DNA of 64,000 nucleotides from Cyanidioschyzon merolae (Eukaryota): assembly GCA_000091205.1 (NCBI GenBank), contig AP006483.2; one strand, written 5' to 3'. Both the position numbers and the translations under genes were made by a program. Under the pieces are notes generated by a model. That model was not told where the DNA came from, did not search any database, and saw only the letters and a list, made by a program, of their open reading frames with translations. The first letter of the stretch is position 1. The number at the start of each line of letters is the position of its first letter. This document shows, piece after piece, positions 30,601 through 56,059 of this stretch.

Positions 30601-33600
30601 CGCGCTGAAGAGAACCGCGAAGCAGCAGCGTTCGCGGCGCGTATGGACGCCACATTCGGTGAAGGTGCAGTTTCCAGCCAGGCGAATACCGAGACCGCTT
30701 GGAGCTCGCGTTCCAAGCAAGCCTCGGAAACTGCACCATCTGATGAACCGGCGAAACCGGAAGCAGGCAAAGGATGCACCCGCATTGCCGGAGAAGCTGA
30801 ACTGGTGCACCGCAGCGCAGCTGCCTCGTCGTCTGGGGCACCCACGATGTCCACATATAGCACTGCTTCTGCTGCTGTTGCTCCTGGAGCAGTGCAACCG
30901 CCACCGTCACCGCCACCACCTTCAACACAACGAGAACATCTCTTGGACCCGAACCAGTGGTACACGCTCGGTCGCCGACGCCTCGTCATTGATATCGATG
31001 GTGAACTGGTCGTCCATTTGCGTCATTTCCCCTTTCCGGTGGTGCAGTTGGAGAAGGGACTCCGCCTCCGGGGAACCGTTGCGCTCGGTGAACTGCACGT
31101 TTGCGAGCCGTTCGCTGCTGAGCGAGACCTTCAGCTCAGTCAAAGCTGCTGGGTGCGCTACCGGCGAGCCATCTCCCCGAATCGCTGGTACTGCGACTGG
31201 GACCTCATGAGCGGTGGACGCTTTCGGCTGAACTGGTCCCGTGCGCTGATTTCTACCCTCAAGGATATGATGGATGGCTTTCAGGGCTTTGCGGGTGCAG
31301 GCAAAGACCCGAGTCCGCTGCTCAACTGGTGGAATCAACTGAGACTGTTGATTCACGGCCGTTGGCGACTGCACTGCCCCGAGGGCTTTCAGATTGTCCT
31401 GTTGAGCAGCGCGCCTTACAACCCTGAGTATGACGAGCGGATCGAGTGCTGCCTAACGGGACCTCGTACGGGGTTATGTATCGATCGCCGACTGGGAACA
31501 GTGGAACTTGAAGCGGACGCCTGGAAGTTGCTGTTCCATGTAGCGACATCGAGCAACCAAGGAGCACCGCTCCACGCCCCGAGTCGACTGTGCGGTGCTG
31601 AACCCATTCACTTGCTTTTCCGGGTCGATGCGGAGCCCGCGCTTGGTGTTCCCGTCTCTGCGTACCCACATCCACTGGGGTATCCTCGAGGTGTCCAGGG
31701 GCCGGGAGAACGCCTGCCTCCCGCTGTCCCGTCGACGTTGGTACCGCTGACTGCTGCCTACCAGGGGAGTTGCGCTCGACTCGCAGCGCGAGAAAACGTT
31801 ACGTTGGGCACTTTGCCTGCGAGCGATGCCTCCAGTGACGCAGCAGGCGCTAGGTGTTTCACGGATTCAAAGCAGCTGATAATGGAGCCGGATGCGGAAA
31901 CGGTTACCCCGTCGCATACTCGGGAATCCGCCGGTGTTCACGCAGATAGCACGCTCGCGGATACCGATACGAAAACAAGCGAACATGCCTCTTCTACGGC
32001 TTCGATTCGCAGAGAGCCGTACGCAGTGTGGTATACACCATTGGCGGACTACCCGCAACACGATACATACCGGAGCTTTCGGGCTCGAGCGCTGCACCTA
32101 TCACTCCAGTGCAAGCTCTCGTGGAGTTCCAGTGTAGCATCCGGAGAGCACGATGCGCAAGGCGCTCAGCTAACCACGTACGCTTTGGCGTCAATGCTCT
32201 TCCGAGTGCTCGAACTGGCCGGAGTGAATCGACTACTGGGGCAGTCACCGTATGCCTTCCGCCCAGTATCCCGCAAAGTCGGCCTCATCCGTTCGGGAAA
32301 GCGGCGCTATGGTGTACGCTTCGGGGAACTCGTGTCAAGTTTCAGCCTCTCCGCATCGGTCCCCAAACCCTGGGCACTCCGCTGCTACGATGCTTTGCGT
32401 CCGACGGAGCACTTTACAGTGCGAGCAGGGCCCGTAATGGCGACGCTGTGCTGGTGCCGTCCAACTGGCTCCGCGTTTGAGTCTATTCGCGGCCGCGCCT
32501 TTGAGCAAAATATCCGAGTCTCGGCAGACTGGCTCCGCATCGACCTGAACCGTGGTCTGCTGCTGCTGCAGACCGGGCGAATCCACTATGAGCGTGCACT
32601 CGAAGTTGAAAAGATGCAGGGCCTGCTTCTGCCCAGCACCCTGGATACGCTTCGTATCTGGCCGGATTCCTTCGCTGCAGTATTCGCCACGGCGAAGAAA
32701 GTCTCACAGCGCACTCTGCTCGCCGGATCCGATGCACTTCATGCGCTGTTTCCGGGGAGCAACTTGGGGAAAGGTGCTGCTGGTGCTGCCGCCACTGCAC
32801 CTGCTACCAGAGTCGCCAAGCCGGAGCGCACGCTTGTCGGGTCGCTACGGGACCAGCACGCCGCGGAAGCGGCTCAGAGCGTCGCCGGCACCGCTTCTGG
32901 TGCAGTGAACACCGGCGCTGGCACCAGCGGCAGCGGTCTCTGGAACAGCGCACTGAGCGCCCCGAAGAGCACCCAAAGTCAGCAGCATGAGCTGGGCAAC
33001 CGCGCTCGACGTCTCGCCAATGCGCTCGGGATGTCGCTCTCGATGCAGCGCAAGCCAGAGACGGATGTCCTGGACTTGAGGGATTTGTTGCTGCAGGAGC
33101 ATCTAGAGCAGGTCAAGCGGCAGCAGCAACAACAACAACAACAAGAACAGCGGCAGCGAACGCGTTCCGGAAGCGCTGCAGACGCTGCCGCACGCTTCAT
33201 GTCCACGCGGGGCACTCCGGCGAGAGAGCGTGCCAGCGACGCTTCGCTTCAACCTCGAAGCACAGCGATAGCCACTCTCGATGCTGATACATCTGGAGCG
33301 GCTTCGACGACGGCAGCGAGCAGCAGACAAAGAAGAGCGCAGAGCCTGGAAGCGCCGCCATTGTGGCACCAGCGCGGCACTTGGACGAAACCTGGTCATC
33401 AGGGCGCTTTGCCGCAGTCGCTCACCAGTGAGCGACTCTCGGCAACGAGACGCCGTCCAGATGAAGCGAGTCGAGCGTGGGAGCAGTCACGAACGAGTGA
33501 GCGGCGCTCGGAAACGACACTCCATGCAGGCGAGACAACTCAAGTACCGGAGCCGTTGCCACAGACGACAGAGGCGGGCGCTCATGAAGCCAACCTGACC

Positions 33601-36312
33601 TCGCCAAACTGGATAGCTTCGTCTTCGGAACGTCCACCAGTTGCTGGTCAGCAGCCGCTACATCCACGCGTTCCCGAGACAGCCGATATCGGACTGCCGG
33701 ATAGCAGTTCCGGTCGAAGTCGTTACACGCAACGTCGCCAACTGCTTTCCCAGCGTGTTCGCTTCCAGTTGACGCTCATCGAGCCCGCTGTCTGGATTCG
33801 CTCCGAACAGGGACGGGATGCGGTGCGTCTGTCAGCCAACCAGGGCATTCTGGATGTCGTGGAGGGCGTCTGTCACCGCGGTGCCCAGGACCTGGGTACC
33901 GAAATCGATTATCGAGTCTGTTTACGCGGTGTGAATATCACCGTCGAGGGCCAGGAACTGTCGCATCCAGCGGAATCGGCACCTATCTTTCTCTACTATA
34001 TTCATCCGGTACCAGCGGAGGACTTGCGGGCTCGCCACGTGGAGGTAGTGGTACCGGCTCTGCACCTGGCGGCCACCGCTCCCGAGTTCCACACGCTTTT
34101 CCGCATTGTACGCGAAGTTCTTCTGAGCAAAGGTAGCCAGGCGTTGCGCGTAAGTCGCATTCTCAAGCCGCTCCGTCAACGCGCTGTGGTCTTCGAGGAT
34201 GCCGACTTTGTGATTGAGCGAGCGCTGACGCTTCGCGCCTTGCTCCAGGATGTGGATCTCTTACTGCTTCATGGCGGTGAGGAGAGTCTCGCCTCTCTCT
34301 GGACGCAGCTGGATAGCAGCAGCGGTAGTACAATGCCACCAGAGAGCCGGCGCGGCAAGATATCCACGGAGGTCGGCAGCACAGGCGCTTCAACCGGTGA
34401 ACGTCTCCTCTGGACGGCAAGTGGCGGTTTGCGCATAACCGGACGAGCAAGTGCTGGTGCTACTGCTGACGCTGCTCTCCGCGAGTCCGAGGAAGGCGCT
34501 GCATCGCGTCCGACGGCACTGAGCGTTGCGACAAGCGCCGGCACTGCCGCCCCACAACCCGTATCCAAGTTACCGACATCCGAACAAGCGTTTGCGTTCC
34601 GTTGGTGGCTTGCTGCACAAGCCCGGGCCTGGCAAGTACTGCTTGTGGATGCATTACGTGGACGCATCCATTATGATGATCGGTCTACAGCGCTGGCAGA
34701 TGAACTCGAGGATCTCGACATCATTCTGGAAGTGGCGCGGGTGCGCTGGTCTCTGCTGCTAAGTCGCCGGCGAGCGTTCCTAGAAGTGAGCATTCGGCGC
34801 ATCTATGGGTTGCAGCGGCGCTATATGAGTGGACGTGAGCTCAACGACTATGGCATTACGGATCTGGTGGTGCAGAATCGCTCACGAGACCTCGACTTGG
34901 GCTGCGTTATTCGTGGTGACTCGTTTCGCTATGTTTCGGTCTCTGAAGGCGTCATTGGTGGGATTATGCGATATTCGCGGTTGACACTGGACATGGCAAA
35001 GACGCTGCATATTCGCCTCTACGGTGTACTGGTGGATCGTCTCAATGAGTACTTTTTCGGGGTGGCTACGAGCACGAATGCTACCGCTGCTGCATCCGCC
35101 GCACAGGCGACAGTGCCCGCTGCGAGCACCGTAGCGGCACCAGTGCAGCCTCTGTCTGAGACGTCGTCTCTTCCGGGAATGTCGCCTGCAGTCGCAGATG
35201 GCAGGAGGTCGAGCGTATCCAGCATTCTTGCCGGGCAACCTGAGACGAGATCAGCGCACGAGCCGCTGCACGAGGCCCGCGAGGGCTCACTGAACGCGAG
35301 CACTCGACGCAGTCCGTCGCGTTCCGCTGACAACGAAACGCTTGCCCCGACAAGTGGTGGTGGTGGTGGTGCTCACGCTCACGCCACTGCTGGTACTGCT
35401 GGTGCTCTGGCAAGCGTTGGAACTGCACTCGGGCATGATGCCGCCACCTCAGCGTCACCGCCGCAAGCCTCGTTTGGTGCACCGCCTGTGGATGCTGCGC
35501 TTACGGGTACTCCTGGCTATCCCGCTGACCCTTCATCGACGCTATTTTTGCTGCCGCTGGAGGAGAGCGCTCAACGCTACGCCTCCGCCAGCGAGTCGCG
35601 GAGCAGTGCGCGTCCGGGTCGTGGCATCACCGCAACAGGAGCGACCAACACCTCTATAACGCCCGTTCAGATCGACTATGCGTACTTATCCTCATTGGAG
35701 ATCATTGGCTCGTACCACAGCGGCACCGGGAAGGAGCACAGTTTTCTCGATTTCGACGATCTCTGTGTGCTGGTGCCGTCGCTCATGTACCAGGCAGTGA
35801 CAGGTTCGTGGCAAGGTTTTATCGAAATGGTGCGTCGAGACTTTGCCTCAGCTTTTGTTCGCGACGCAATCGGGCAGCTGAGCAAGCGCAAGTTTCTCGG
35901 GTTCCTGCGACGGCCTTTTCGAAGTATATCTACGATCGATGATGGGCGCTCTGCAGGCGAACCAGGCAGCCAGGTGGCGGTACTGGCGTCGCCAGCAGCC
36001 ACAGAAGCAGCCATCCGCCGACGTCGACAACGGGGACGCACGCCAATTGTACAGGCCGTGGAACAGGCTTCCGCAGCAGCAGCAGTACGAAGCACAGCTC
36101 GTGAGCATCTCAGTGAGCTGGTACTTTTCGGTAGTTTACGGCTTGTACGCAGGGCGCTGATGCGTGATCCCCCGGCACGAAGCGCTGCGATGAATCCGGA
36201 GCAGGCGTCAGAGCCACTGAGGCACGAGGATGCAGAGGACAACAACGAAGACGACGGCGACGAAGAAGAAGAAGATGATGATGATGACGAACCGTTAGCT
36301 TTGCCAGCCTAG
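27655..36312 (+). CDS. Giant (2885 aa) FMP27/SABRE/KIP/Hobbit-family bridge-like lipid-transfer protein (BLTP2-like), with an N-terminal transmembrane anchor and an acidic C-terminal tail
   Basis: An 8.66 kb uninterrupted ORF. A hydrophobic helix (LGIALLSSWLLLLFIGEFLASLV) sits near the N-terminus, as in Hobbit/SABRE/Fmp27. The segment GFQGFAGAGKDPSPLLNWWNQLRLLIHGRWRL resembles the family GFWDK-box (GFWDKlRL..HG; SABRE-type ..WWDdmR..iHG). Length and mixed beta-rich/low-complexity composition fit the RBG-repeat lipid-transfer family. Contains poly-Q (RQQQQQQQEQRQR), poly-A/S/T linkers and the tail EDNNEDDGDEEEEDDDDDE. Confidence 0.55.
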   Translation: MPVYRPLFRCALSVFLCRNSYRTLGRAVGFWRANGTSWLLRGSRLGIALLSSWLLLLFIGEFLASLVELSVDVLTRIGVDARRSTESEAPPRPSQHALGAAFLARAARIVRLTAPFGLVQKFRLAFGTRLVLCWGTKPSHPWAEQGKRELRPAAVDPGALLGQGVARPRASNTPLDWVPHLQCCHDLLPEPERRCPMKRCFGIGVYVPALELVYGASAAETSATSNASESSADPVVVTIRVEQLYVPVSALVILLGRYLYGRLQRHHRGASSFGRRETHPSSFCRVWKQRLEHALVKMLYGILSGIRAAQVATVLVSASSPDQGVFTLQRLECELDRNTPAVQFHGRYGLYAKPKRSGAEDHQESFARAFLRALRGTQSEQQYAGIGVFGCVHLCRSLEERNTRCHQNAAIIAWYETPGQLGCGAALLGSTHGVYRSRPPGRDADKESIDSPPHSSVAIATPPTSARRNADLQFEMAGIGLELSFELLVELAQRYTQQWLRRQARKTEQNRVGRSRSDSGAKLLQKLSHLAISLHLRNVKLDFISKRDEVRLEASELELFLDQSKAGASAVGAFMVPEARPFAKSLHIRLDQAAVQLFHRLVTPSITTKDDGALNATLTTVLRCGMIFGSLEEAVLERVELQVAQHPLLVIAQLAVVQTLRQVQVQRPRLDWCPDAQDGLEAIWHRWRTLLPQLDEHLQRKSQKRSELAPTRIPEDSISLWQLSVVGEASAWGRFPHGNNSGMVFDALQMPLQRQPWRIRVERLSWFVDDRCMGHAAQTSFCVHWGKEKRLIEAHTALLRFQMPYGFRFLQQYNLFLAHLRLYFRYRKTFGRHTGTRSARAAPGTATWSGTRKSIFPDVDIRADEAEFVLRDHELEHWFNERFLVMVDEAQERVLRERLAHSMLEANRPRQQEILADELEHQHATLYVRRMQQWQQQRLELERAAALHQQVVAPWMPDAAFQQLFVARAMNVRFRLIRSRLSRAEENREAAAFAARMDATFGEGAVSSQANTETAWSSRSKQASETAPSDEPAKPEAGKGCTRIAGEAELVHRSAAASSSGAPTMSTYSTASAAVAPGAVQPPPSPPPPSTQREHLLDPNQWYTLGRRRLVIDIDGELVVHLRHFPFPVVQLEKGLRLRGTVALGELHVCEPFAAERDLQLSQSCWVRYRRAISPNRWYCDWDLMSGGRFRLNWSRALISTLKDMMDGFQGFAGAGKDPSPLLNWWNQLRLLIHGRWRLHCPEGFQIVLLSSAPYNPEYDERIECCLTGPRTGLCIDRRLGTVELEADAWKLLFHVATSSNQGAPLHAPSRLCGAEPIHLLFRVDAEPALGVPVSAYPHPLGYPRGVQGPGERLPPAVPSTLVPLTAAYQGSCARLAARENVTLGTLPASDASSDAAGARCFTDSKQLIMEPDAETVTPSHTRESAGVHADSTLADTDTKTSEHASSTASIRREPYAVWYTPLADYPQHDTYRSFRARALHLSLQCKLSWSSSVASGEHDAQGAQLTTYALASMLFRVLELAGVNRLLGQSPYAFRPVSRKVGLIRSGKRRYGVRFGELVSSFSLSASVPKPWALRCYDALRPTEHFTVRAGPVMATLCWCRPTGSAFESIRGRAFEQNIRVSADWLRIDLNRGLLLLQTGRIHYERALEVEKMQGLLLPSTLDTLRIWPDSFAAVFATAKKVSQRTLLAGSDALHALFPGSNLGKGAAGAAATAPATRVAKPERTLVGSLRDQHAAEAAQSVAGTASGAVNTGAGTSGSGLWNSALSAPKSTQSQQHELGNRARRLANALGMSLSMQRKPETDVLDLRDLLLQEHLEQVKRQQQQQQQQEQRQRTRSGSAADAAARFMSTRGTPARERASDASLQPRSTAIATLDADTSGAASTTAASSRQRRAQSLEAPPLWHQRGTWTKPGHQGALPQSLTSERLSATRRRPDEASRAWEQSRTSERRSETTLHAGETTQVPEPLPQTTEAGAHEANLTSPNWIASSSERPPVAGQQPLHPRVPETADIGLPDSSSGRSRYTQRRQLLSQRVRFQLTLIEPAVWIRSEQGRDAVRLSANQGILDVVEGVCHRGAQDLGTEIDYRVCLRGVNITVEGQELSHPAESAPIFLYYIHPVPAEDLRARHVEVVVPALHLAATAPEFHTLFRIVREVLLSKGSQALRVSRILKPLRQRAVVFEDADFVIERALTLRALLQDVDLLLLHGGEESLASLWTQLDSSSGSTMPPESRRGKISTEVGSTGASTGERLLWTASGGLRITGRASAGATADAALRESEEGAASRPTALSVATSAGTAAPQPVSKLPTSEQAFAFRWWLAAQARAWQVLLVDALRGRIHYDDRSTALADELEDLDIILEVARVRWSLLLSRRRAFLEVSIRRIYGLQRRYMSGRELNDYGITDLVVQNRSRDLDLGCVIRGDSFRYVSVSEGVIGGIMRYSRLTLDMAKTLHIRLYGVLVDRLNEYFFGVATSTNATAAASAAQATVPAASTVAAPVQPLSETSSLPGMSPAVADGRRSSVSSILAGQPETRSAHEPLHEAREGSLNASTRRSPSRSADNETLAPTSGGGGGAHAHATAGTAGALASVGTALGHDAATSASPPQASFGAPPVDAALTGTPGYPADPSSTLFLLPLEESAQRYASASESRSSARPGRGITATGATNTSITPVQIDYAYLSSLEIIGSYHSGTGKEHSFLDFDDLCVLVPSLMYQAVTGSWQGFIEMVRRDFASAFVRDAIGQLSKRKFLGFLRRPFRSISTIDDGRSAGEPGSQVAVLASPAATEAAIRRRRQRGRTPIVQAVEQASAAAAVRSTAREHLSELVLFGSLRLVRRALMRDPPARSAAMNPEQASEPLRHEDAEDNNEDDGDEEEEDDDDDEPLALPA

Positions 36313-39568: not shown

Positions 39569-40531
39569 CTATCGCTCTATTGCATACGATAGGGTTGATG
39601 AGACGGATTCCCCTCTTCGACCATGCTCCGGTTGCTTCACCGACACAGGTTGCTCTTTGGCTTTCGAGTTTGCCTCCGGCGATGCTGGTGCTTGTGGCAC
39701 AGTGCGAGCACGTTGGCGATCGTGCAGGTCCTGAGCCATCTGGTCGGCAAGTTCAGCTGCACTTGCTCCTAGAGTGCCGTGCTGGTTCCCCAGCCGCCGC
39801 TGCACCAAACGCTTTGCATGGTACGCAAATGACGTTCGATCCTCCTTAAAGTTCCGCGCGAGCGCCAGAAGTGCCTTATCGCCGTCGGCCGCCAAGTCTA
39901 CAAGCCGATCATACTCGGCGCTGCTCAGGGCGCTGCCACCGCCAACGCTGTACAGAATGTGCACGAGCTGTATCGCCAGATCCTGCATTTCAGCCTCTGT
40001 TCGAGGCGTCGTGACTGAGCTACCGCTCGTCTCAGGGGCAGCGCTCTTGACGCGACCTGGGACCTGGCTTGAGCGAGGTATCAGGGGCGGCGCGGACTCG
40101 AGCTTGACGCCTCTGCGCGGTATAACAGCCTCTTGAGGCGAAACCAGCGACCAAAAGAGCCAGCTCGCATCCGGGAGCGCTCGTACATCGGCGTTCGTCC
40201 GTACGGGCTCGGTGAATATAGGAGCATAAAACACGGATATCTGTTTGATGTCGTCACCACGCAAGACAACGGTGGGAAACGGGGGCGGCTGCGCTTGCGC
40301 TATTCGCTGCCTCAGCGAAGTTACGGTCATGGAGTAGAGTTTAATGGTCGCCAAGTCACCATCAGGGTACTCGATGCAGCGCAGCGGCTTCCCGAAAATA
40401 TAGGACTTGATGACGTTGAACACTATCGAAGAACCTCCGAGCAGCTTGAACGTGGCGTCAGCTTTGCCTAGTACTGCCGGAATGAGCAGTGGGGCCGGCG
40501 CCATGCGCCAGCGGCGGCCAGTGCGCTGCAC
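39569..40531 (-). CDS. Hypothetical protein (320 aa), no domain recognised
   Basis: A 963-nt ORF with coding-like composition in an otherwise AT-richer region. The N-terminal ~100 aa looks like a small beta-rich domain. The C-terminus is Ala/Gln/Arg-rich. Confidence 0.35.
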   Translation of the reverse strand: MQRTGRRWRMAPAPLLIPAVLGKADATFKLLGGSSIVFNVIKSYIFGKPLRCIEYPDGDLATIKLYSMTVTSLRQRIAQAQPPPFPTVVLRGDDIKQISVFYAPIFTEPVRTNADVRALPDASWLFWSLVSPQEAVIPRRGVKLESAPPLIPRSSQVPGRVKSAAPETSGSSVTTPRTEAEMQDLAIQLVHILYSVGGGSALSSAEYDRLVDLAADGDKALLALARNFKEDRTSFAYHAKRLVQRRLGNQHGTLGASAAELADQMAQDLHDRQRARTVPQAPASPEANSKAKEQPVSVKQPEHGRRGESVSSTLSYAIER

Positions 40532-44210: not shown

Positions 44211-44991
44211 CATGGGTGTAGAGGCCCGCGTACCGGTCCATTGGCCTTGCATCCTCTGGCAAGAAAGTGTCGGCTGGCAGATCGCGCGTCTTTGCCGCTT
44301 CCGCTCCAGCAGAGCTGATCACGCGCTTCGCAATGCAGCACTGCTGATCGATTTCCCTAAAGACGCGTTCATGACTATTGCAACACCATACGTCTCATCG
44401 ATGTCGCTAGAGATGCATCATAACGAATGCGATGCGGTACCGCTGATCGATGTCGCGTAAGATAAATCATACCAATTGCAACATTATACTAATGGCCATT
44501 GTCTCTAGAGTCACTTCAAGCCTATTGCAACTCGATATTGCTGATCGATGCCATTCGCAGAGCACCCTGCGTGCTTCGAAGCGGCAGGCCTCTCTGGACC
44601 GGAAAGCGCGACCCGCTGTGCGAACAGCGCCCCGATCGATGTTCCCACATATCCCTTACTTGTATACCCCTGGGCACCAAGCTTCAATGCCTCCGAGAAT
44701 CGCAAGACCCGGGCTGATCACACCTGGGAGCGTCTTCTATGACGCTGCGTTCGCTACCCGTTGCGAAGCTCGCGTTGTCGTGCGCTATAGCGCGATCGGA
44801 TCGACGTCTGGATCCCACGAGCAGCAGCGCAATGCAAATTCATGGTACATATCTGAATATAATGAGTCAATATATCCAACCATCGTATGCTGCACACCGC
44901 AGCCACGTGCATCTGCGCCAGTGGCTGCCAAAGGACGCAGGGAGCGCGTGCCTCCAGACTTGCCAATACGTGTGCTTCGTTCACTGTATGA

Positions 44992-47900
44992 GTGTGGCAT
45001 CTGCCGTCACACTTCGGGTGGCTTTTCAAGCCGAAGGGACCGATGTGGTTTGCTCTTGCGCTATGGGCTCGCCGAATTGTCGTCTACTATGTCGCCCTCC
45101 GGGTTTATGTTGACGTTCGATGGACACGGAGGCGGGCTCGAGCTTTTGGCGAGGACGACGCGCGGTACGCTCTCCTCTGGTCGCGTTGCCATCGACGATG
45201 TGCTCGCCGTCTACTGCGCAGCATGTTGCGACTGCGAGGTCTTTGGCTTAAAGCTGGTCAATACGTCAGCACTCGTGCAGACGTCGTGCCTGTCGAGTAC
45301 GTGGAAGAGCTCATGCAACTACAGGACGCCGTGCCTGCAGAGGCGGGAGATCGCGTGCGGGCTCGACTTGAGCGCGAGCTCGCTAGGGCACCTTTCCAAC
45401 GTGGTCTTCTCGACGTGTTTGCGAATATAGACTTGGAGGAGCCGTTGGGATGTGCGAGCATTGCCCAGGTGCACCGTGCTCGGCTGCGCGGTTCGAACGC
45501 CCAGGTGGTCGTCAAACTTCGACACCGCGGCGTGAAGCGCGTTGTCGAACAGGATCTAGAAAACCTGCGCATCATTTTCGATTGGATTGCATACTACGAA
45601 CCAGACTTTGATTGGCGAGAGCTCGTTCGAGAGTGGTCATCACGCGTACGCGAAGAGCTCGACTTTCGTCTGGAGGCCACGAACCTGCAGCGCACTCGGA
45701 ACTCGCTCGCCCAAGCCGGCATGCTCTACACTGAGGTGCTTATGCCCCAGGTCTTCCCAGACCTGGTCAGTGAACGACTGCTCGTGATGGAGTACATGGA
45801 AGGCGTGCGCATCACGGCGTTCGGACCAGACGGCATTGCCCGGAACGCTGACGGCAGCGTTCGCCTCCGGTTAGAGCCTGCAAGCCTGGAGCTGGTAATG
45901 CAGCGCATTAGCCGTGCTTTTGCACACCAGATGCTTGTGGACGGCGTTTTCAACGGAGATCCTCACGGTGGGAATATTCTGGTCTGTGCATACCAACCGG
46001 GGGTATATCTCCCCGTCCTGCTCGACTTCGGACTCGTCATCCGAATGGAGGAGCGCATGCGCCAAGGCCTCGCGCGGATGATGCTAGCCGCCTCCGACGG
46101 GGACACGTTCCTGCTCATACGGTCGTTTGCGGAGATGGGTATTCGTTTCCCTGGCATCGAAAGTTCGAAAGATGTACCCAAAGGGTCAACGCAACACGAT
46201 TCTACGGCGGTAACGTTGGACGGCGATCCCGGTCGGAGCATGGAGGTTGTGCAGTTTCTTTTTCGAAGCACAGCGCCCATTGAAGAGGCCAAGCGCGAGC
46301 AGGAAGCGTTTTACAGAAAGCGCTCTCAGCCACGCGATGCGTCCCTGCCGGGTCGGAACGATCCCGAGGCTGCCCCCAAAAAAGCGGTTGCATCAAAACC
46401 AAAAGATTTTCCCAGCACTACCATCCCCGGATCGATTATGTTCATGATGCGCGTCGTGGGACTCTTACGGGGTCTAGCTTCCACGCTAGGCGTGCGGCAC
46501 GCCTTTCTTCCAGTCTTTCGGGAATATGCGCTGCGGTCGCTGCCTCCAGCGCCGGATACGTGGATTTCTCGGTCACCAGCACGGTCCCTGTCGGACAAGG
46601 TGCTCGCATTGTGTCATTCGCTCAAGGATCGCGTCGTGGGCATACAAGTGGCGGTCTATCATAAACACCGCTTACTCGTGGACGTCGCCTACGGCCGAGT
46701 CGACCCATACTCCTGGAACCGGGACGGTAGCAATATCGTAACACCAAAAACGCTATTTTCTTCGTTTTCAACCACCAAGGGAATCACCGCAATGCTGGTT
46801 GCGCGTGCGCTGCACCGAGTTCAAACTGCAGCAGCGTCAACATCAACAGCAAGAGCAGAGTCTTACGACGAAGGCTCGCTTGCGCGCTGGCGGCAGGGTT
46901 ATCACACACCGGTGCATACGATCTGGCCAGAGTTTGGCACGAGTACCTGGAAACGCGCCTGTACCATCGGGCACATCATGAGTCATCGGTCGGGGCTGCA
47001 ACACGCGTTACCTGCCTCTTTCAGTATGTGCAACGCCTTGAACTGGGACCTAATGGTCTCTGAGATCGCCCAGGTAGAACCTGTTTTCGAGCCCGGCACT
47101 CGGGTTGCCTACCAGTATCTCTCGTTCAGCTGGCTTGCTGGCGGTATCCTCGAGCGTTGTCCGACCTTGGATGCGCAGCGTCCGTACGCTCGGGTAGCGG
47201 AGCATTTGGCGCAACTGAAAGAGGCTTTTGGAATCGAACCCGATGAAGCATATATCGGACTTGAGATACAGCAGGTCGGTGGCAGCGACGACGGTACATT
47301 CGATAAGCACGGCGCTGTAGTTTGTGATACTCAGGGCATACCGAATGGCATCAAGGAGCACATGTCGGGGAATCCGCCGGTATCACGCGACCGCCTCGCA
47401 GTCTTGAACAAGTTTGGTGCCGGTCTCACCAGTGACGCGCTCCTTGGTGGTGATGGTGCTGCGACTGCGCAGGCGGAAGCCGCGGCACCAGCGGGTGAGC
47501 GCGCTTTTCCCGCTCCTGTGGATGCTGTTGCAACTTCTACGGATCCAGCCGGTTTGGAAACGGGCGAGCGACCCGCCTCGAGCACAGTCGAACGAGCCCA
47601 TCAATCTACCTTGTCCGTGGTGAGCGCAGCGAGTTCGGATCTGCTCAATAGCGGTCTGGATGCCATTGGGACGCTCATGGAAGCCAACGATAATCCCCTG
47701 GAAAAACAACAACTTAGCCAGTTGCGAGAGCGAATCCAGCGAGAGAAGTTGTTCTGGGTACTCGATCCCTGCTTCTTCAATCATTTGTTGGTACGCAAAG
47801 CTTGTCTTCCTGCAGCGAATGGTCACTTCACAGCTCGGGCTTTAGCGCGCTTCTACGATAAGGCAATGCAACAGCCGTGGTGGCGAATGGCAACCGAGGC

Positions 47901-48150
47901 CGTTCCCGACAGTGACTGGACTCTGGGCGGATTGCTTCGCTTTGCGGACGGTCTTATTATAGGCCATGGTGGTATTGGGGGCTCCTTTGCGCTGGCGATC
48001 CCAAAGGCCCAGCTCACCATTGCTATCACTGTCAACCGTCTGGAGCTCAGTCGGAATGGTCCATCTGTGGCCGAACATGTTCTGGAGTTGGTTGCTAAGG
48101 ATCTTCACATCAAGCGCTTTGCTCCAAAGAGACTTTTTCGGAGGCGCTGA
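44992..48150 (+). CDS. ABC1/UbiB-family atypical kinase (ADCK-like) fused to a C-terminal serine beta-lactamase/transpeptidase-like domain (ABC1K-beta-lactamase fusion)
   Basis: LKAGQYVSTRADVVPVEYVEEL..PLGCASIAQVHRARL..QVVVKLRHRGV..DLENL..DFRLEATN..LLVMEYMEG matches the ABC1/aarF kinase motif series (KxGQ, AS(I/L)AQVH, VAVKVQ, DF..EA.N). The downstream TPKTLFSSFSTTKGITAMLVA carries the S-x-x-K active-site motif of class C/LACTB-like beta-lactamase-fold hydrolases, and GHGGIGGSFALAI resembles the KTG/HxG box. 1052 aa, single ORF. Confidence 0.85.
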   Translation: MWHLPSHFGWLFKPKGPMWFALALWARRIVVYYVALRVYVDVRWTRRRARAFGEDDARYALLWSRCHRRCARRLLRSMLRLRGLWLKAGQYVSTRADVVPVEYVEELMQLQDAVPAEAGDRVRARLERELARAPFQRGLLDVFANIDLEEPLGCASIAQVHRARLRGSNAQVVVKLRHRGVKRVVEQDLENLRIIFDWIAYYEPDFDWRELVREWSSRVREELDFRLEATNLQRTRNSLAQAGMLYTEVLMPQVFPDLVSERLLVMEYMEGVRITAFGPDGIARNADGSVRLRLEPASLELVMQRISRAFAHQMLVDGVFNGDPHGGNILVCAYQPGVYLPVLLDFGLVIRMEERMRQGLARMMLAASDGDTFLLIRSFAEMGIRFPGIESSKDVPKGSTQHDSTAVTLDGDPGRSMEVVQFLFRSTAPIEEAKREQEAFYRKRSQPRDASLPGRNDPEAAPKKAVASKPKDFPSTTIPGSIMFMMRVVGLLRGLASTLGVRHAFLPVFREYALRSLPPAPDTWISRSPARSLSDKVLALCHSLKDRVVGIQVAVYHKHRLLVDVAYGRVDPYSWNRDGSNIVTPKTLFSSFSTTKGITAMLVARALHRVQTAAASTSTARAESYDEGSLARWRQGYHTPVHTIWPEFGTSTWKRACTIGHIMSHRSGLQHALPASFSMCNALNWDLMVSEIAQVEPVFEPGTRVAYQYLSFSWLAGGILERCPTLDAQRPYARVAEHLAQLKEAFGIEPDEAYIGLEIQQVGGSDDGTFDKHGAVVCDTQGIPNGIKEHMSGNPPVSRDRLAVLNKFGAGLTSDALLGGDGAATAQAEAAAPAGERAFPAPVDAVATSTDPAGLETGERPASSTVERAHQSTLSVVSAASSDLLNSGLDAIGTLMEANDNPLEKQQLSQLRERIQREKLFWVLDPCFFNHLLVRKACLPAANGHFTARALARFYDKAMQQPWWRMATEAVPDSDWTLGGLLRFADGLIIGHGGIGGSFALAIPKAQLTIAITVNRLELSRNGPSVAEHVLELVAKDLHIKRFAPKRLFRRR

Positions 48151-49697: not shown

Positions 49698-52600
49698 ATG
49701 AATGCGGACCAAGTTGCTGCACTCGCTCGTGCTGTCGCGGAAACAACCTGGCAAGGTACGCTTCAGTATATAGTTGCCAGTACCGCGTTGAGGCAAGAGC
49801 CTCTGAGCAAACCGCAACTTCAGTGGACATCAAGTTTGCGGAGGGCGCTGCATTTGGCCAAAACAGCAAATTATGGTGCCCCGACCAGCAACCAGGAGTC
49901 TGCAGTGCTGAAAGCACCTGCTGAGGCTGCGACTGTGGTACAAAGCGACGCAGCAGTCGCCGGTCAAACTACAGTCCTTGCAGCGTTTACAGGGGCCGCA
50001 TGGTACCTCCAAGGTGCACCCGCACCCAAAATAAGTCTAGAGTGGAATGATGAGGTCTCCGCGGACGACCTATTGGACCCGTGGGGGCTCGTGCTTCCCA
50101 TGTGCTGCTGGACGTTACCGGAGCAGTCAACGTCAATAGCAGCGACAGCGCTCGCGTTCGAAACTAACACGCACCCAGGGATATCTTCACAGAGTATCGA
50201 GCCAGCATGGAATACTGCCGATACACTGGATATGTTTCCAGCAGTCTGGGATCCGCAGTACTACGTGCGTGGTCGCGGTGACGGCATCAGGCGTTTCGCG
50301 AGACCAAAGCAACTGCAACCTCCAGAGCAAATGCGGCCGGTTGTGTCTTTATCCGGGCAAGTAGATGACCAGCTGCCGAGCAGGCCGGACGCTTCAGACG
50401 AACGCAACGATTCGGACTGGTGGAACGTATGTGTAGAGCGTATCCAGAAGTGGAATCCGCCTCTCTGGATGCCAGCAACACAGCCACCTAGCCAGCTCAA
50501 TTGGGTACCTCGGAGACAGACCAAGCAGAACCTTCTTGATCGAATACATCTTGATGAAGCATACCTGCAGTCTTTGGAGCAGCGACGAGCACGCGAGTCG
50601 ATCAGTAACCCCAATGGAGGAAGTGCCCTTGCCTACATCGCCGGCGATGCGGATGAACTCGGTGGACTCGCCTTCACAGGTCGAGTCATGGAGAGAAGCC
50701 GGCAACCCGGATTTTCCTGGGCACAAGCCTTCGAACCTGAGCAAGGCGATGAGATCCTTTTCGGTATTCGACTCGAGCAACTAGAGGAAGAACCTGAGGA
50801 ATCGACGGCTGCTAGAACGCCTCGGATTGCTACGGCAAGGACGCTGGAAACTGCAACTGATCCACCGCGTGCGGTTCCTTCTCTGCCCGCGCTTGATCGA
50901 CTGGATGCACGTCTGGCCTCAGTCGAGCGCTCACTGGAAGAGCTTCTCCGACCCGAACAACAGCAAAGCGACCTCGGCATTGGTGCATCAACTAATATGC
51001 CAAATGTATCAGCAGTAGCAGCAGCAGGAGGAGGAGGAAAGCCAGCCCGGCGCTCTGTCTATGCGCTGGTCGACGAGTCGGATCCAGTGGACTTTGCGCA
51101 ACGCGTCCCAAAGCCAGCACTCGAGTTTCCCTTTGAACTAGATCGCTTCCAGAAGCAGGCCATTCTGCACATTGAGCGCGGAGAGAGCGTCTTTGTCGCA
51201 GCTCACACCTCTGCAGGGAAGACAGTGGTTGCTGAATACGCGATTGCGCTGGCTCGCGCTCATGCAACCAAGGCAATTTACACGAGTCCCATCAAGACGC
51301 TCAGCAATCAAAAGTTTCGGGATTTTAGTGATCGTTTTGGTTCGGAGTCAATTGGTTTGATCACGGGCGATGTCTGCATCCAGCCAACGGCTCCCTGTCT
51401 AATCATGACAACAGAGATTCTGCGCTCGATGCTCTACCGGGGTGCCGACCTCATTCGGGACGTCGAGTGGGTCATCTTCGATGAAGTCCACTACGTGAAC
51501 GATGAAGAGCGTGGTGTCGTCTGGGAGGAGGTCATCATTCTGCTGCCGGAACACGTCAACATCATCATGCTTTCGGCAACGGTGCCGAACGCGCAAGAAT
51601 TTGCCGACTGGGTTGGACGCTGCAAACAGAGACCTGTGTATGTCATCACGACGAGCCACCGACCAGTGCCGCTTCAGCATTATATCTACGCGAAGAACGA
51701 TCTCATTCTCGTGAAAAATGCACGAGGGGATTTTCTCTCACAGGGCTACAAGGCCGCTCAGGATGTGGAGCGGGAACTCGTCGCCAAGCGCGGAGCGAAA
51801 GCGCACCTGGCACCTGCTGGGATACTAGGACGCCCAGCCTGGGGTACATTGGTGCAGTTCCTGCGCAAACGAGAGCTTCTACCGGCAGTAGTTTTCTGTT
51901 TCTCTCGCAAGAGATGTGAAGAGGCAGCGGACAGCCTTGGTACATTGAATCTACACCAGCAGAACCCGGGCGAAGCGCATCGGATCCACGTTGTGGTCGA
52001 GTCGGCACTCTCGCGCTTGCAAGCGGCGGATCGGCGTGTTCCACAGATTCAAAGAGTTCGTGACCTCCTGCACCGAGGCATCGGCATCCACCATGCCGGA
52101 CTGCTGCCCATCGTGAAAGAGATGACGGAAATTTTATTTCAACGGGGCCTCGTGCGGGTCCTCTTCGCCACCGAGACGTTCGCCATGGGTGTGAATATGC
52201 CCGCACGCACCGTCGTCTTCAGCGGCATTCGCAAACACGATGGAAGGCAGTATCGACTGCTGAGTCCTGGTGAATATACCCAGATGAGCGGGCGAGCCGG
52301 TCGCCGGGGCCTCGACGCCTATGGCATCGTGATCCTCTTCTTCTCCGTAGGCGAACTCCCGACTGAGCTAGACCTGAAACGCACTATGACAGGAGTGCCA
52401 CCCCGGCTTTCAAGCCAGTTCCGCCTCTCCTACAACATGATACTGAACTTGATTCGAACGGAGCGCGTGCAGGTCGAAGAGGTGATCCGCAGGAGCTTCA
52501 CTGAAGCGGAGTCGTTTGGCGCGGAACGCCGCATCCAGCGCCTGCTGGTGCACGGACGCGCGAACCTCGCACGCATAGATTCGGAACTAGCGACATTTGG

Positions 52601-54170
52601 GGATCAATTTTCACAATACTATACCTATGTCAATCAAGTTGTACAGCGTGCCAGCGCTGTTCATGAGCAGCTATTCTCCGTGGGTCCGCATGGCTACGCC
52701 AGCATCACTGCGGTCCCTGGTCGAATGCTGTTGCTGCGTCGTACCGATGGTGGCATTGCTTTGGGGATCGTTGTCGGTGCAGCAGCGGAGAAGCGGTATC
52801 GGGCATCCGCGCAACATCTACTGGAGGAAATCCGGCGATTGGTGGTGCCAGTTCTGGTACTCCTGGGTGGCCCGGCGCTTCGCGACACCGTGTTTGCGCT
52901 ATCCGAGGAGCCGTCTGCCCAGGTCGGAAATGCCGCTAACGACGCGGGTGCACGCTCGACGAGCGTGTTCACCGAGCCTGTGCGGCTTGCATATCAGCAG
53001 CGGTTGCACGGTCTGGAGTTTTGCATCGGAGATGCGGTCCCGAGCGAGATTCTCACAGTCTATCATCAGGTGCTGTCCATTCCGAACGAGAAAAATCTTG
53101 AGCGTTCGCTCTTCCCGCTGCGCGGTCGTCCAAACTTGGAGCTCGTGGCCACGCTGCTCGAGTCTTTGCGTTCCGTAGCGGAACGGTTCGGCGCAGCTGA
53201 TGCAACATCGGAGTTTTTGGTGGGTATGCATCCACGGGAGCATTGCGGTATTCCAGATTTGGAGCTCGAAGCAAAATGGATTGAAAAAGAGCGTCTCCTT
53301 CGTGACCATATTCTGAACTCTGCGTGCTTGTGGGACGCCTATAATCGCAGCGTTCTTGCTACCGCGTTTGAACTTGCGGAACGGCGCCACCGTCTTGAGC
53401 AGAAGCTCGAGTATCTGCAGTATGCGAGCAGCTATCGCTCTCTGCAACTCCTACCGGACTATATGCAGCGTTTGGCCGTTCTCGAGCGACTTGGATACAT
53501 AGAGCGCAGCGGTTCTGGAAACAACTTGGACTACGACCCGGTGACGTTCTCGGATGCCGAGCGGCCGCCGTCCAACGGGCTCATGGTGACGCTCAAAGGG
53601 CGAGCCGCCTGCGATGTGGGCACCTGTGATTCTTTGCTTTTGGTGGAATCCATGTTTGAGGGGATCTTCAGTGACCTTGAACCCTGCAGTATTGCAGCAC
53701 TAGCCTCCTGTCTGGTATTCCAGGAGAAACTAGATCCCAGCGAGTACATCTTGCCAGATCAGGCCGCCCGTTCCGAGTTAGATGGCCTGCAGCTGGATGC
53801 AACGGCGATGGAGACGCTGGCTGCCTCCCTGAACAAACTCAAGCGCGTTGCGTTAGCTCTCGGAACCGTCCAAGCAGAGTGCGGTCTTCCGGTGTCACCC
53901 AGCGAGTATCAGAGCATGACGGTGAACCCGGGTCTCTTGATTCCCGCGCTGCTTTGGGCTCAGGGCGCTCCATTTAAAGATATTTGCGTATGGACGCCGG
54001 TGCAAGAGGGAAGCATTGTTCGCACGATTGTGCGCTTGAGTGAGCTCCTTCGAGAGACCGCCGATGTTGCTCGCGTTATTGGTGACAGTCGGCTTCTGTC
54101 CAAGGTTGACACCGCCTCGCGCTCGATCAAGCGAGACATCATTTTCGCTGCCTCGTTGTACGTTGCGTGA
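49698..54170 (+). CDS. Ski2-like DExH-box RNA helicase (SKI2/MTR4 family) with a long N-terminal region and a C-terminal DSHCT domain
   Basis: FELDRFQKQAI (Q-motif), AHTSAGKTVVAEYA (motif I, GKT), FDEVHYVND (DEVH box), MLSATVPN (motif III), HHAGLLP / TETFAMGVN / QMSGRAGRRG (motifs IV-VI), and the C-terminal DSHCT-like block ICVWTPVQEGSIVRTIVRLSELLRE. ~480 aa precede the helicase core, which fits SKI2 better than MTR4. Confidence 0.85.
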   Translation: MNADQVAALARAVAETTWQGTLQYIVASTALRQEPLSKPQLQWTSSLRRALHLAKTANYGAPTSNQESAVLKAPAEAATVVQSDAAVAGQTTVLAAFTGAAWYLQGAPAPKISLEWNDEVSADDLLDPWGLVLPMCCWTLPEQSTSIAATALAFETNTHPGISSQSIEPAWNTADTLDMFPAVWDPQYYVRGRGDGIRRFARPKQLQPPEQMRPVVSLSGQVDDQLPSRPDASDERNDSDWWNVCVERIQKWNPPLWMPATQPPSQLNWVPRRQTKQNLLDRIHLDEAYLQSLEQRRARESISNPNGGSALAYIAGDADELGGLAFTGRVMERSRQPGFSWAQAFEPEQGDEILFGIRLEQLEEEPEESTAARTPRIATARTLETATDPPRAVPSLPALDRLDARLASVERSLEELLRPEQQQSDLGIGASTNMPNVSAVAAAGGGGKPARRSVYALVDESDPVDFAQRVPKPALEFPFELDRFQKQAILHIERGESVFVAAHTSAGKTVVAEYAIALARAHATKAIYTSPIKTLSNQKFRDFSDRFGSESIGLITGDVCIQPTAPCLIMTTEILRSMLYRGADLIRDVEWVIFDEVHYVNDEERGVVWEEVIILLPEHVNIIMLSATVPNAQEFADWVGRCKQRPVYVITTSHRPVPLQHYIYAKNDLILVKNARGDFLSQGYKAAQDVERELVAKRGAKAHLAPAGILGRPAWGTLVQFLRKRELLPAVVFCFSRKRCEEAADSLGTLNLHQQNPGEAHRIHVVVESALSRLQAADRRVPQIQRVRDLLHRGIGIHHAGLLPIVKEMTEILFQRGLVRVLFATETFAMGVNMPARTVVFSGIRKHDGRQYRLLSPGEYTQMSGRAGRRGLDAYGIVILFFSVGELPTELDLKRTMTGVPPRLSSQFRLSYNMILNLIRTERVQVEEVIRRSFTEAESFGAERRIQRLLVHGRANLARIDSELATFGDQFSQYYTYVNQVVQRASAVHEQLFSVGPHGYASITAVPGRMLLLRRTDGGIALGIVVGAAAEKRYRASAQHLLEEIRRLVVPVLVLLGGPALRDTVFALSEEPSAQVGNAANDAGARSTSVFTEPVRLAYQQRLHGLEFCIGDAVPSEILTVYHQVLSIPNEKNLERSLFPLRGRPNLELVATLLESLRSVAERFGAADATSEFLVGMHPREHCGIPDLELEAKWIEKERLLRDHILNSACLWDAYNRSVLATAFELAERRHRLEQKLEYLQYASSYRSLQLLPDYMQRLAVLERLGYIERSGSGNNLDYDPVTFSDAERPPSNGLMVTLKGRAACDVGTCDSLLLVESMFEGIFSDLEPCSIAALASCLVFQEKLDPSEYILPDQAARSELDGLQLDATAMETLAASLNKLKRVALALGTVQAECGLPVSPSEYQSMTVNPGLLIPALLWAQGAPFKDICVWTPVQEGSIVRTIVRLSELLRETADVARVIGDSRLLSKVDTASRSIKRDIIFAASLYVA

Positions 54171-54712
54171 GAAGCAGGCGTTCTCAAGATGCTGCGAACA
54201 CGGCGAGTATTTGTGTGTATTTATGATGCACCCTTAGTTCGTCTGGTCGAGGCTTGGATGCAAGCACCCAGCTTGTGCCATCTTGGGAAGGGTGTCATGC
54301 TATTTGGCCGAGCATCTATGGATCTAGTTCCTTGATCGGAAACAGCTGCGTCTATGAGGTTGCACCTTATGCATTGTAGCTGCCGATGACTTGCGGTACG
54401 AATGTGCATCTTGTTGTGCTGGCGAGCAAGGCCCTTGTTGGTGCCTCGAATCGATCGCTAATCGGCAGTCAATGGGGAAAGCTTCCAAGTAAGCCGGTTT
54501 GTCGGAGCATGGATCGATATTTTCTGCCGCGCGTGCACGCCCCGCTTTGATCCCTCGTAGCGGATTCGGATTGGAGTGCTCTGCGAAGCGCACAAGAAGC
54601 GCACTCCTTGAGCTGTCATGTTCCTCTGCGCAATTCCCACCGAGAGGCATGCCTGCGTCTTGGCTTCCCTGGATTCGAATCCAGGAGTGCAAAATCGAGT
54701 TTCTGAGGCAAC

Positions 54713-54740
54713 CAGGCAGGCAGGCAGGCAGGCAGGCAGA
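54713..54740. repeat. (CAGG)7 microsatellite
   Basis: Direct read: caggcaggcaggcaggcaggcaggcaga. Confidence 0.9.
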
Positions 54741-56059
54741 CCGATGGACAGACGAGATTGGCTCGTCAAATGCGTCTATAATGCGAGACCACATATTCAA
54801 GCATCGTTTAACGCGCGCTTTATATGCGTTCTCGTCCTGCCGAAGCGCTTCTGCGCGACCGATGTCCCAGCATCGGCGAGGCCGTGCTTGGTTTATGGGA
54901 TCCTTGCATTGTGCTTCGAACGCGAATCTAATAGCGAACGGTTCCATTGCAAATCCATACAAAACAGGCGATTTCTGGGAAACGAAAGGCTGTTCCGTTG
55001 GCAGGACATGCAAGGCAGCAAGCTTTGTACACAGCAGAACCCGAGGTATCCGTGAATTCGAAACGTTCTATGGACTCTGGGGGCGTACCGGTTATGGAAT
55101 AGCCATCTGTGCGATGTGTCGATGCCGTTTGGATCCCAGGCTTTTACATACATCTCCACGCAGGTGGAGGAGGATCGCGAAGCATACACCCAGAGTTGTG
55201 TTTGCGAAGCGACCCATAAACGGTCCAATCGTGTGCTATCGTCTTCCTGTTTCGAACGCAGCAAATGCACCGCTGAGCGAAACTGCGCATCGAGCGTGTG
55301 GCTGGGTAAGCTTTCGGGCTAGTCCAGATATGGTCAGTGTATCGACGCCGTCAGCTGCCTTGCCATTGGCACGCGAACGAGCCGGCGACATTTTTTCCAT
55401 GGCAGTAATGCCGCTGCTTTTGTGGATGTGCTCTTACAAAGCGATGCAGATAAGCGCCGAGCGTGCATGGCTCTGTTTCCGTTGTGCAGTTTTCGCTAGA
55501 AACTTGACAGCCAATGATACGAGCGGCACTACTCGAGCGTCACCGCGCTTCTTTTCCATAGACTTCGTAAGAGCCTGGGCGTGCTTCGATTCCGTTGTGT
55601 TGCTGCGATATTCGAGAATCGTTTGGCGGACCGAGGCCAATTGCAGTCGAGGACATGCAGTAGTGCCCGCCGACATGTCGCTTCTGCACTGCTCTCGATG
55701 AGCGCTTCCAAGAGCGACTACAGCAGCGCGATATGCGAATCGCAGTGAACGCTTCCCCGCAGGAGCTCAGTTGCAACTGGATGCATTCGACATACATAAA
55801 ATATTGGTGAGAGGTACAATCTCAGTAAGATTTGCCCCATTCACTGTTACAAGCGCTGCCGCTGACGCACCGCTGCCAGCTCCACAGCGATTCAGGGTGC
55901 AGTTCGCTAGGACGGCACATGGACAAAACTCGGACACCCCACCGACAGCTATCACCACAGCGAATGGGTTGTTTGGATTTGACGAGACCGCGGCGGCAAC
56001 ACGCATGCATGTCTGTTGCAGCAGTGCACCTACCGTCGAACAGTTGAAGGAGCTTGTTA

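Follow-up and report, generated by a model that had tools for sequence, protein, structure and literature searches.

In this study, we analysed a 64,000-nucleotide stretch of the Cyanidioschyzon merolae genome (GenBank assembly GCA_000091205.1, contig AP006483.2; hereafter the window, whose positions are used throughout) and, within it, a gene on the forward strand at 45043-48150. We consider it highly probable (about 0.85) that this single gene encodes, in one polypeptide, a UbiB/ABC1 kinase-like module followed by an EstA-type hydrolase. The window belongs to a nuclear chromosome of a cyanidiophyte red alga, as judged from a 100% database match and from the similarity to a Cyanidiococcus protein described below; its G+C content is 50-60% and its open reading frames (ORFs) are long and intron-free.

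The gene and its kinase-like half

The ORF list of the window contains an uninterrupted frame of 1052 amino acids at 44992-48150 (+). A preliminary description of this DNA, made from the sequence by itself, had taken this frame for the gene; the frame exists exactly as given, but its start does not hold, as the GTG at 44992 directly follows an in-frame TGA at 44989 and the first ATG, at 45043, yields a protein of 1035 amino acids. The later start is preferred because the length of the database protein P0001 ('aarF domain-containing kinase'), which is 100% identical over the same 1035 residues, and the N-terminus of the Cyanidiococcus orthologue both agree with it. The latter, a hypothetical protein of Cyanidiococcus yangmingshanensis, is the best named relative and matches over its full length with 75-77% identity and the same N-terminus. 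A kinetoplastid origin of the window, which its gene-dense and intron-free layout had suggested, was rejected in view of this match. Residues are numbered from the ATG at 45043.

The same description had proposed an in-frame fusion of an ABC1 kinase to a beta-lactamase-fold domain, and this was borne out: the domain search placed both Pfam domains in the same protein, in one frame and with no stop between them, and not in different frames or genes. The fusion is not an artefact of assembly, of a frameshift or of a chance ORF, since an identical 1035-residue product occurs on 23 contigs from public assemblies (metagenome contigs from several samples); the SKI2-type helicase gene lies downstream of it at each of the four contig places shown, in four samples. 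For the contrary explanation, in which adjacent genes were merged by misassembly or the frame is open by chance, no supporting point was found. It is refuted by the identical products, by the presence of the same fusion in 98 distinct 50%-identity clusters and by domain E-values of 1e-50 and 1e-29, which lie far outside chance expectation, and we give it practically no weight.

The gene and the features of its N-terminal half are as follows, with conservation counted over the 120 listed homologues, which extend from red algae to angiosperms.

45043-48150 (+): complete coding sequence of the UbiB-esterase fusion, 1035 amino acids plus a TGA stop, from the first in-frame ATG after 44989
45043-46542 (+): UbiB/ABC1 atypical kinase-like fold, amino acids 1 to ~500, including an N-terminal helix (amino acids 1-32) and the KxGQ extension (Pfam, Foldseek)
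45250-45261 (+): KxGQ motif K70-A-G-Q73, the UbiB signature (K and Q 120/120, G 119/120)
45454-45474 (+): Ala-rich nucleotide-binding loop A138-S-I-A-Q-V-H144, found in UbiB proteins in place of the Gly-rich loop (118-120/120)
45514-45516 (+): ATP-binding lysine K158 (VVVK), invariant (120/120; 93 of 93 aligned residues in the broad set)
45952-45975 (+): catalytic loop N-G-D306-P-H308-G-G-N311 (D, H and N 120/120; D-N-D in 91 of 98 broad representatives)
46024-46032 (+): metal-binding D328-F-G (120/120)

Pfam ABC1 (PF03109) matches amino acids 110-372 with E = 2.6e-50 (171.3 bits against a cut-off of 22.9), and the other hallmarks of the UbiB family accompany it, namely the KxGQ extension, the Ala-rich loop, the K158/D306/N311/D328 core and the UbiB fold; E205 and E211 are also present among the kinase-side motifs. 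Among the NCBIfam models, those of UbiB type match the N-terminal part and LipL (esterase/beta-lactamase) matches the C-terminal part, all below their equivalog cut-offs. In a Foldseek comparison with the PDB, the N-terminal part was matched to MSMEG_1954, COQ8A/ADCK3 and Rv3197 with template-modelling (TM) scores of 0.59-0.78 over 398-478 columns. The AlphaFold2 model, built on 30 homologues, has a mean predicted local distance difference test (pLDDT) score of 65.6; in the UbiB part the score is mostly 76-93 over amino acids 1-350, with one ten-residue block at 66, and the segments of the whole model that fall below 50 are amino acids 369-397, 429-460, 740-783 and 787-872.

Since approximately 460 columns align to COQ8A and MSMEG_1954, the UbiB fold extends to about residue 500. 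The ~200 amino acids that the preliminary description had placed between the two domains are therefore not an interdomain distance: according to the model, most of this gap between the Pfam matches is kinase-like C-lobe, including a strongly conserved helix at amino acids 457-485, and the predicted linker is only ~25 amino acids long.

The solved UbiB structures, COQ8A/ADCK3 (4PED, 5I35) and Rv3197/MSMEG_1954 (5YJZ, 7CY2), share with the algal protein the fold, KxGQ, the Ala-rich loop, the catalytic Lys, DxHxGN and DFG, whereas structural identity to them is only ~15-18% and none of them carries a C-terminal hydrolase domain. A profile of the fusion family, searched against the PDB, finds Rv3197/MSMEG_1954 at ~1e-38 and COQ8A/B at ~1e-28; because it favours the mycobacterial UbiB proteins, the fusion protein is not a COQ8 orthologue.

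The hydrolase half

Pfam Beta-lactamase (PF00144) matches the C-terminal half in two stretches from amino acid 546 (E = 3.3e-29; 102 bits against a cut-off of 27). The S-T-T-K nucleophile noticed earlier is present, as FSTTKG at 46765-46782, and is one of the following features.

46615-48117 (+): predicted beta-lactamase/penicillin-binding protein (PBP)-fold serine hydrolase, amino acids ~525-1025, of the EstA-type family VIII carboxylesterase kind (Pfam, profile, Foldseek)
46768-46779 (+): nucleophile motif S576-T-T-K579 (S-x-x-K), aligned with solved esterases (S 119/120, K 119/120)
47110-47118 (+): catalytic tyrosine motif Y690-Q-Y (Y-x-x), aligned with the GYH-block Tyr of 5GKV and 5GMX (Y 119/120)
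47260-47757 (+): lineage-specific Ala/Gly/Ser-rich insertion in an esterase surface loop, amino acids 740-905, mostly predicted to be disordered (pLDDT below 50 at 740-783 and 787-872), with a long helix at its end; far shorter in plants and variable among cyanidiophytes
47809-47826 (+): P-A-A-N926-G-H928 block, aligned with PGANGQ, PSANGH and PAANGH of 5GMX, 5GKV and 8J5V, respectively (N 118/120, H 119/120)
47962-47985 (+): third active-site wall motif G-H975-G-G-I978-G-G-S981 (H975 and S981 119/120; G977, G979 and G980 120/120)

Class C beta-lactamases carry S-x-x-K, Y-A-N and K-T-G, and family VIII esterases carry S-x-x-K, Y-x-x and W-x-G, or H-x-x in subfamily VIII.3 (PMC9795927). In the algal protein S-x-x-K and Y-x-x are found, and GHGGIGGS aligns with GHSGWGGS of 5GMX and 5GKV, which puts I978-G-G at the position of the class C K-T-G and of the W-x-G of VIII.1/2; neither W-x-G nor H-x-x is present. 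Across the fusion family, position 978 is L, M, F, V or I followed by G-G and is never W or K. The preliminary description had suggested checking for intact YxN and KTG-like motifs; what stands there instead is Y-Q-Y and I-G-G, which matches the pattern seen in family VIII esterases. The G-G and the missing Lys in the third motif are consistent with esterases or acyltransferases, and as the canonical Trp is missing we call the domain family VIII-like and EstA-type, without a defined subfamily. The 98-sequence MAFFT alignment (fast setting) is rough, and local pairwise alignment served as a second check on the motif calls.

The similarity searches point the same way. The best PDB matches of the fusion-family profile are 5GKV Esterase A (3.5e-49), 5GMX (7.6e-46), 8J5V (1.3e-38), 7Y3Z (1.1e-34) and 3ZYT EstA (1.5e-29), and lower down come EstB 1CI8 (7e-16), AmpC enzymes (~1e-12), R61 DD-peptidase (1.6e-12) and human LACTB (7V21; 1.9e-11). 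When the single sequence is searched, the only solved structures found at E<1 belong to five family VIII carboxylesterases and to one uncharacterised protein, and the four conserved blocks all align. Foldseek matched the C-terminal part to 8J5V, 5GMX, 7Y3Z, EstCE1 (7ATL) and 4IVI with TM scores of 0.57-0.70, and PBP-fold acyltransferases and class C beta-lactamases ranked lower than the family VIII carboxylesterases. The bacterial EstA-type esterases (5GKV, 5GMX, 8J5V estZF172, 7Y3Z FEH and 3ZYT) have in common with the fusion the PBP fold, S-x-x-K, the Tyr of Y-x-x, PAANGH and GHxG-x-GGS. They are, however, stand-alone proteins of ~370-400 amino acids, most of them with W-G-G (A-G-G in 8J5V) in place of the hydrophobic-G-G of the fusion family, while the eukaryotic hydrolase has large loop insertions and the UbiB module attached. 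LACTB, the class C enzymes and R61 have the same superfamily fold and S-x-x-K, but their Y-x-N and K/H-T-G boxes are not conserved in the fusion, nor are they its closest relatives. From these alignments and profiles, the C-domain is assigned as a putative EstA-type family VIII-like, esterase-like hydrolase, and not as a class C beta-lactamase, a DD-peptidase or a relative of LACTB.

Two other assignments of this domain have to be weighed. The first would make it a true beta-lactamase or peptidoglycan DD-carboxypeptidase tied to the peptidoglycan of the (cyanobacterial) plastid, which would explain its presence in Archaeplastida. The Pfam domain name agrees with this, and some family VIII esterases are reported to hydrolyse nitrocefin or cephalosporins. 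We consider it very improbable, since the fusion is also present in organisms that lack a plastid (chytrids, a choanoflagellate and an ichthyosporean), neither a K-T-G nor a Y-A-N box is found, and class C enzymes and R61 are found at ~1e-12 against 1e-49. The second would combine a mitochondrial UbiB kinase with a LACTB-like S12 serine peptidase or DD-peptidase whose substrates would be proteins or peptides of the mitochondrion. It has a precedent, as the plant fusion proteins have been filed under serine protease family S12 with a predicted mitochondrial location (PMC1560137), and LACTB and R61 are detectable relatives (E ~1e-11 to 1e-12). Against it, EstA-type enzymes match the profile 18-38 orders of magnitude better than LACTB and DD-peptidases and lead the fold matches of the C-domain, with LACTB outside the top 50, and the motifs are Y-x-x with hydrophobic-G-G and not Y-x-N with H/K-T-G. 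Together with the N-terminal evidence discussed below, these points make it improbable.

A link between the lipid biology of UbiB proteins and mitochondrial LACTB was also considered and rejected: a search with the single sequence does not find LACTB at E<1, its profile match is 1.9e-11 compared with 3.5e-49 for the EstA type, and it is not among the top 50 folds.

Each of the catalytic positions of both domains is kept in 119-120 of the 120 listed homologues, as would be expected if both active sites are used, and the Ser/Lys/Tyr triad is retained in the red-algal protein and in plants. Several family members, P0126 (N-E-H), P0174 (G-E-H) and P0196 (G-R-H), lack the whole Ser/Lys/Tyr triad yet retain the kinase D-N-D. 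Such losses suggest a further explanation, that the hydrolase domain, as a pseudo-enzyme, mainly binds a ligand or regulates the UbiB ATPase instead of acting as a catalyst. We regard this as unlikely for the algal protein, because Ser, Lys, Tyr and G-G are kept here and in all but one of the 120 close homologues, a retention not expected of a purely structural domain.

Other fusion members, including a protein of Hammondia, have Cys in place of the Ser nucleophile and likewise keep D-N-D. The residues at these positions suggest that P0126, P0174, P0196, P0190 and P0194 are pseudo-hydrolase or altered-nucleophile variants.

Relatives, distribution and genomic setting

All 120 matches listed by a word-indexed search carry both Pfam domains. 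In an exhaustive search of 1.84 billion cluster representatives, from which the best 150 at 50% identity were scanned, both domains were found in the same order in 98. Ten kinase-only clusters were sampled; four or more of them look like fragments or incomplete gene models, from organisms in which the fusion itself exists, and no named stand-alone UbiB relative was obtained from the ten. The fusion was found in the following groups.

Land plants: many angiosperms; the liverwort Calypogeia
Streptophyte algae: Closterium, Chlorokybus, Mesostigma
Stramenopiles: the raphidophyte Chattonella
Alveolates: the coccidian (apicomplexan) Hammondia
Holozoa: the choanoflagellate Salpingoeca infusionum; the ichthyosporean Chromosphaera
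Chytrid fungi: Entophlyctis, Homolaphlyctis, Dinochytrium, Quaeritorhiza

Kinase-only clusters were the sole source of matches in the chytrid Rhizoclosmatium and in the prasinophytes Chloropicon and Cymbomonas, for which the two-domain protein was not confirmed. Judged by the matches in the groups above, the fusion is an old, widespread and pan-eukaryotic family. It had earlier been taken as characteristic of plants and algae, a view that is too narrow in the light of the chytrid, choanoflagellate, ichthyosporean, apicomplexan and raphidophyte members. The lineage hint towards Archaeplastida drawn from it was right as to the organism, which is a red alga; with members outside plants and algae, however, the architecture by itself is no lineage marker.

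The gene has ABC1 N-terminal to PF00144 in one polypeptide and its closest homologues are themselves fusions; it is the cyanidiophyte counterpart of plant ABC1K11 (At5g24810), and its architecture was already known in kind; the protein itself stands in public databases, where both domains are precomputed. A 2006 paper described this architecture, as 'ABC1-S12', in Arabidopsis At5g24810 and rice LOC_Os06g48770, each the sole PF00144 protein of its species (PMC1560137). The Arabidopsis protein that the preliminary description mentioned thus exists, together with its rice counterpart. The plant and red-algal proteins agree in domain content and order, have nothing ahead of the conserved N-terminal helix and have all catalytic residues in common, with 33-38% identity over most of their length. 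Relative to plants, the red-algal protein has insertions at amino acids 369-397 and 598-612 and the large one at 740-905, whereas a plant insertion of ~100-130 amino acids before the GHxG motif is missing from it. At5g24810 is mentioned in just seven open-access papers, one of which mislabels the gene as an ABC transporter. An abc1k11 T-DNA line shows higher staining for reactive oxygen species under salt or mannitol; this is the only functional datum found, in agreement with the earlier remark that the biochemical role is essentially uncharacterised. Literature searches on fusions of UbiB/ABC1K with beta-lactamase, or of FYVE, START or SCP2 with ABC1, returned only PMC1560137 as relevant. The EstA-type affinity, the pan-eukaryotic spread and the association with FYVE, PX, SCP2 and START were not found discussed in the searchable literature and are modest additions.

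Many relatives are longer. Phosphoinositides on cytosol-facing membranes are the ligands of FYVE, PX and PH domains, and lipids are carried by SCP2 and START domains. Among 30 long-form members scanned, FYVE was found in 14, SCP2 in seven, START in two, PX in two and PH in one, the typical order being SCP2-FYVE-UbiB-esterase. The long forms are 37-40% identical to the window protein (P0099, E = 3.7e-105), as close as the plant orthologues, and on this ground belong to the same family.

In long forms of the holozoan type, the START domain lies within the esterase domain (amino acids 1148-1314 of P0099 and 1224-1402 of P0133). This site coincides with that of the red-algal insertion at amino acids 740-905, which marks the esterase loop as an insertion hot spot. 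In P0145, a protein of 1814 amino acids from Homolaphlyctis polyrhiza, ~880 amino acids of Cep192/CFAP65/HYDIN-type Ig-like (ASH) domains precede the UbiB-esterase core; here the gene model may have taken in an adjacent ciliary gene.

The neighbours of the gene in the window are a weak TFIID-subunit-like match, a TPR protein, EPSP synthase, a CXC protein, an ornithine-decarboxylase-like protein, a Hobbit/BLTP2-like giant, a SKI2 helicase and HSP90. As these are unrelated nuclear genes, the neighbourhood is uninformative on function. The following ORFs were located.

13411-15096 (+): EPSP synthase, with ~105 amino acids N-terminal to the Pfam domain
21322-23832 (-): ornithine/arginine-decarboxylase-like protein, with ~300 amino acids N-terminal to the Pfam domain
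27655-36312 (+): 2885-amino-acid ORF matching the Hobbit/FMP27/BLTP2 bridge-like lipid-transfer family (PF10344, E = 5.5e-21)
39569-40531 (-): ORF of 320 amino acids, no Pfam match at E<=1e-4
49698-54170 (+): SKI2-type RNA helicase of 1490 amino acids (DEAD, Helicase_C and DSHCT)
54499-55701 (+): ORF of 400 amino acids, no Pfam match at E<=1e-4
60555-62924 (+): HSP90, with ~105 amino acids N-terminal to the Pfam domain

The N-terminal regions of the EPSP synthase, the decarboxylase-like protein and HSP90 may be organelle-targeting or lineage-specific extensions. The Hobbit/BLTP2-like ORF lies ~9 kb upstream of the UbiB-esterase gene, and this lipid-related pairing is probably a coincidence in a nuclear genome.

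Probable location and proposed mechanism

The red-algal and land-plant proteins begin directly at the conserved UbiB N-terminal helix, which leaves no room for a cleavable presequence. The mitochondrial or plastid presequence expected in the preliminary description is accordingly not evident in the alignment. The N-terminal segment is modelled as a helix (mean pLDDT ~77-88), and no 19-residue Kyte-Doolittle window reaches a hydropathy like that of a transmembrane segment, the maximum being 1.42.

An N-terminal transmembrane anchor was considered and rejected on the basis of this peak of 1.42, the Arg inside the segment and its alignment with the UbiB helix.

The SCP2, START, FYVE, PX and PH modules of the long forms and the lack of an N-terminal extension make a cytosol-facing site likelier than the mitochondrial matrix. 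The protein would more likely work on a cytosol-facing surface of an organelle or of the endomembrane system. The same evidence bears on the mitochondrial S12-peptidase explanation. The Arg-rich N-terminus and the place of ABC1K11 in the mitochondrial ABC1K clade speak for it, but an extension that could hold a cleavable presequence is missing, and N-terminal SCP2 and FYVE or PX domains in close relatives would be unlikely alongside import by an N-terminal presequence.

A mechanism can be proposed in which the fusion protein would be active on membrane surfaces, with a hydrophobic lipid as its substrate. The UbiB module would bind ATP and act on, or be activated by, isoprenoid or quinone-type lipids, as do the characterised UbiB proteins COQ8 and the plastoglobule ABC1Ks. 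The Ser576/Lys579/Tyr690 hydrolase would cleave or transfer an acyl group held in ester linkage by that lipid or a related one, and the ATP-dependent and hydrolase activities would be coupled in cis. We give such a lipid-coupled mechanism slightly less than an even chance.

Several points weigh against this proposal and against the location that goes with it. UbiB chemistry is itself still debated, as to both ATPase versus kinase activity and lipid versus protein substrates. The N-terminal 33 residues are hydrophobic and very rich in Arg, and could act as an uncleaved targeting or anchor signal. ABC1K11 has been placed in a 'mitochondrial clade' by phylogeny and prediction, in line with the mitochondrial prediction for the plant fusions already cited (PMC1560137). 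The accessory lipid-binding domains sit in relatives and not in the red-algal protein, so that they bear on it by association. The esterase part of the AlphaFold2 model is of moderate confidence, with a pLDDT mostly of 50-85. Loss of the triad in some members indicates that hydrolysis is not essential everywhere in the family, and the C-domain could serve as a ligand-binding module. Finally, no biochemical or localisation experiment on any fusion member was found in the literature.

A more specific and more tentative proposal, which we hold to be possible rather than probable, is that the ABC1K11-type fusion is a pan-eukaryotic lipid-handling machine on cytosol-facing membranes (PI3P-type [phosphatidylinositol 3-phosphate] endosomal, vacuolar or contact-site membranes) and not a mitochondrial kinase. 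The UbiB ATPase would then extract or present a hydrophobic lipid that the hard-wired esterase or acyltransferase acylates or deacylates. Of an ancestral SCP2-FYVE-UbiB-esterase(-START) protein, plants and red algae would have only the minimal core.

Few conserved kinase-like enzymes are as poorly understood as the UbiB/ABC1 proteins, and the plant ABC1Ks are tied to prenylquinone and stress biology. The natural fusion offers a 'Rosetta stone' hint at the partner of the UbiB module, which would be a hydrolase of the esterase or acyltransferase type and, elsewhere in the family, lipid-transfer and phosphoinositide-binding domains. It leads to testable predictions, with ester-linked lipids as the substrate class and a cytosol-facing membrane as the location, for a protein found in crops, algae, chytrids and coccidian parasites. 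The gene itself is ordinary and already catalogued; the family is a worthwhile uncharacterised target. Cyanidioschyzon is amenable to genetics by homologous recombination and, should the lipid-handling proposal be true, a cyanidiophyte that has few paralogues would make a clean system in which to find the substrate.

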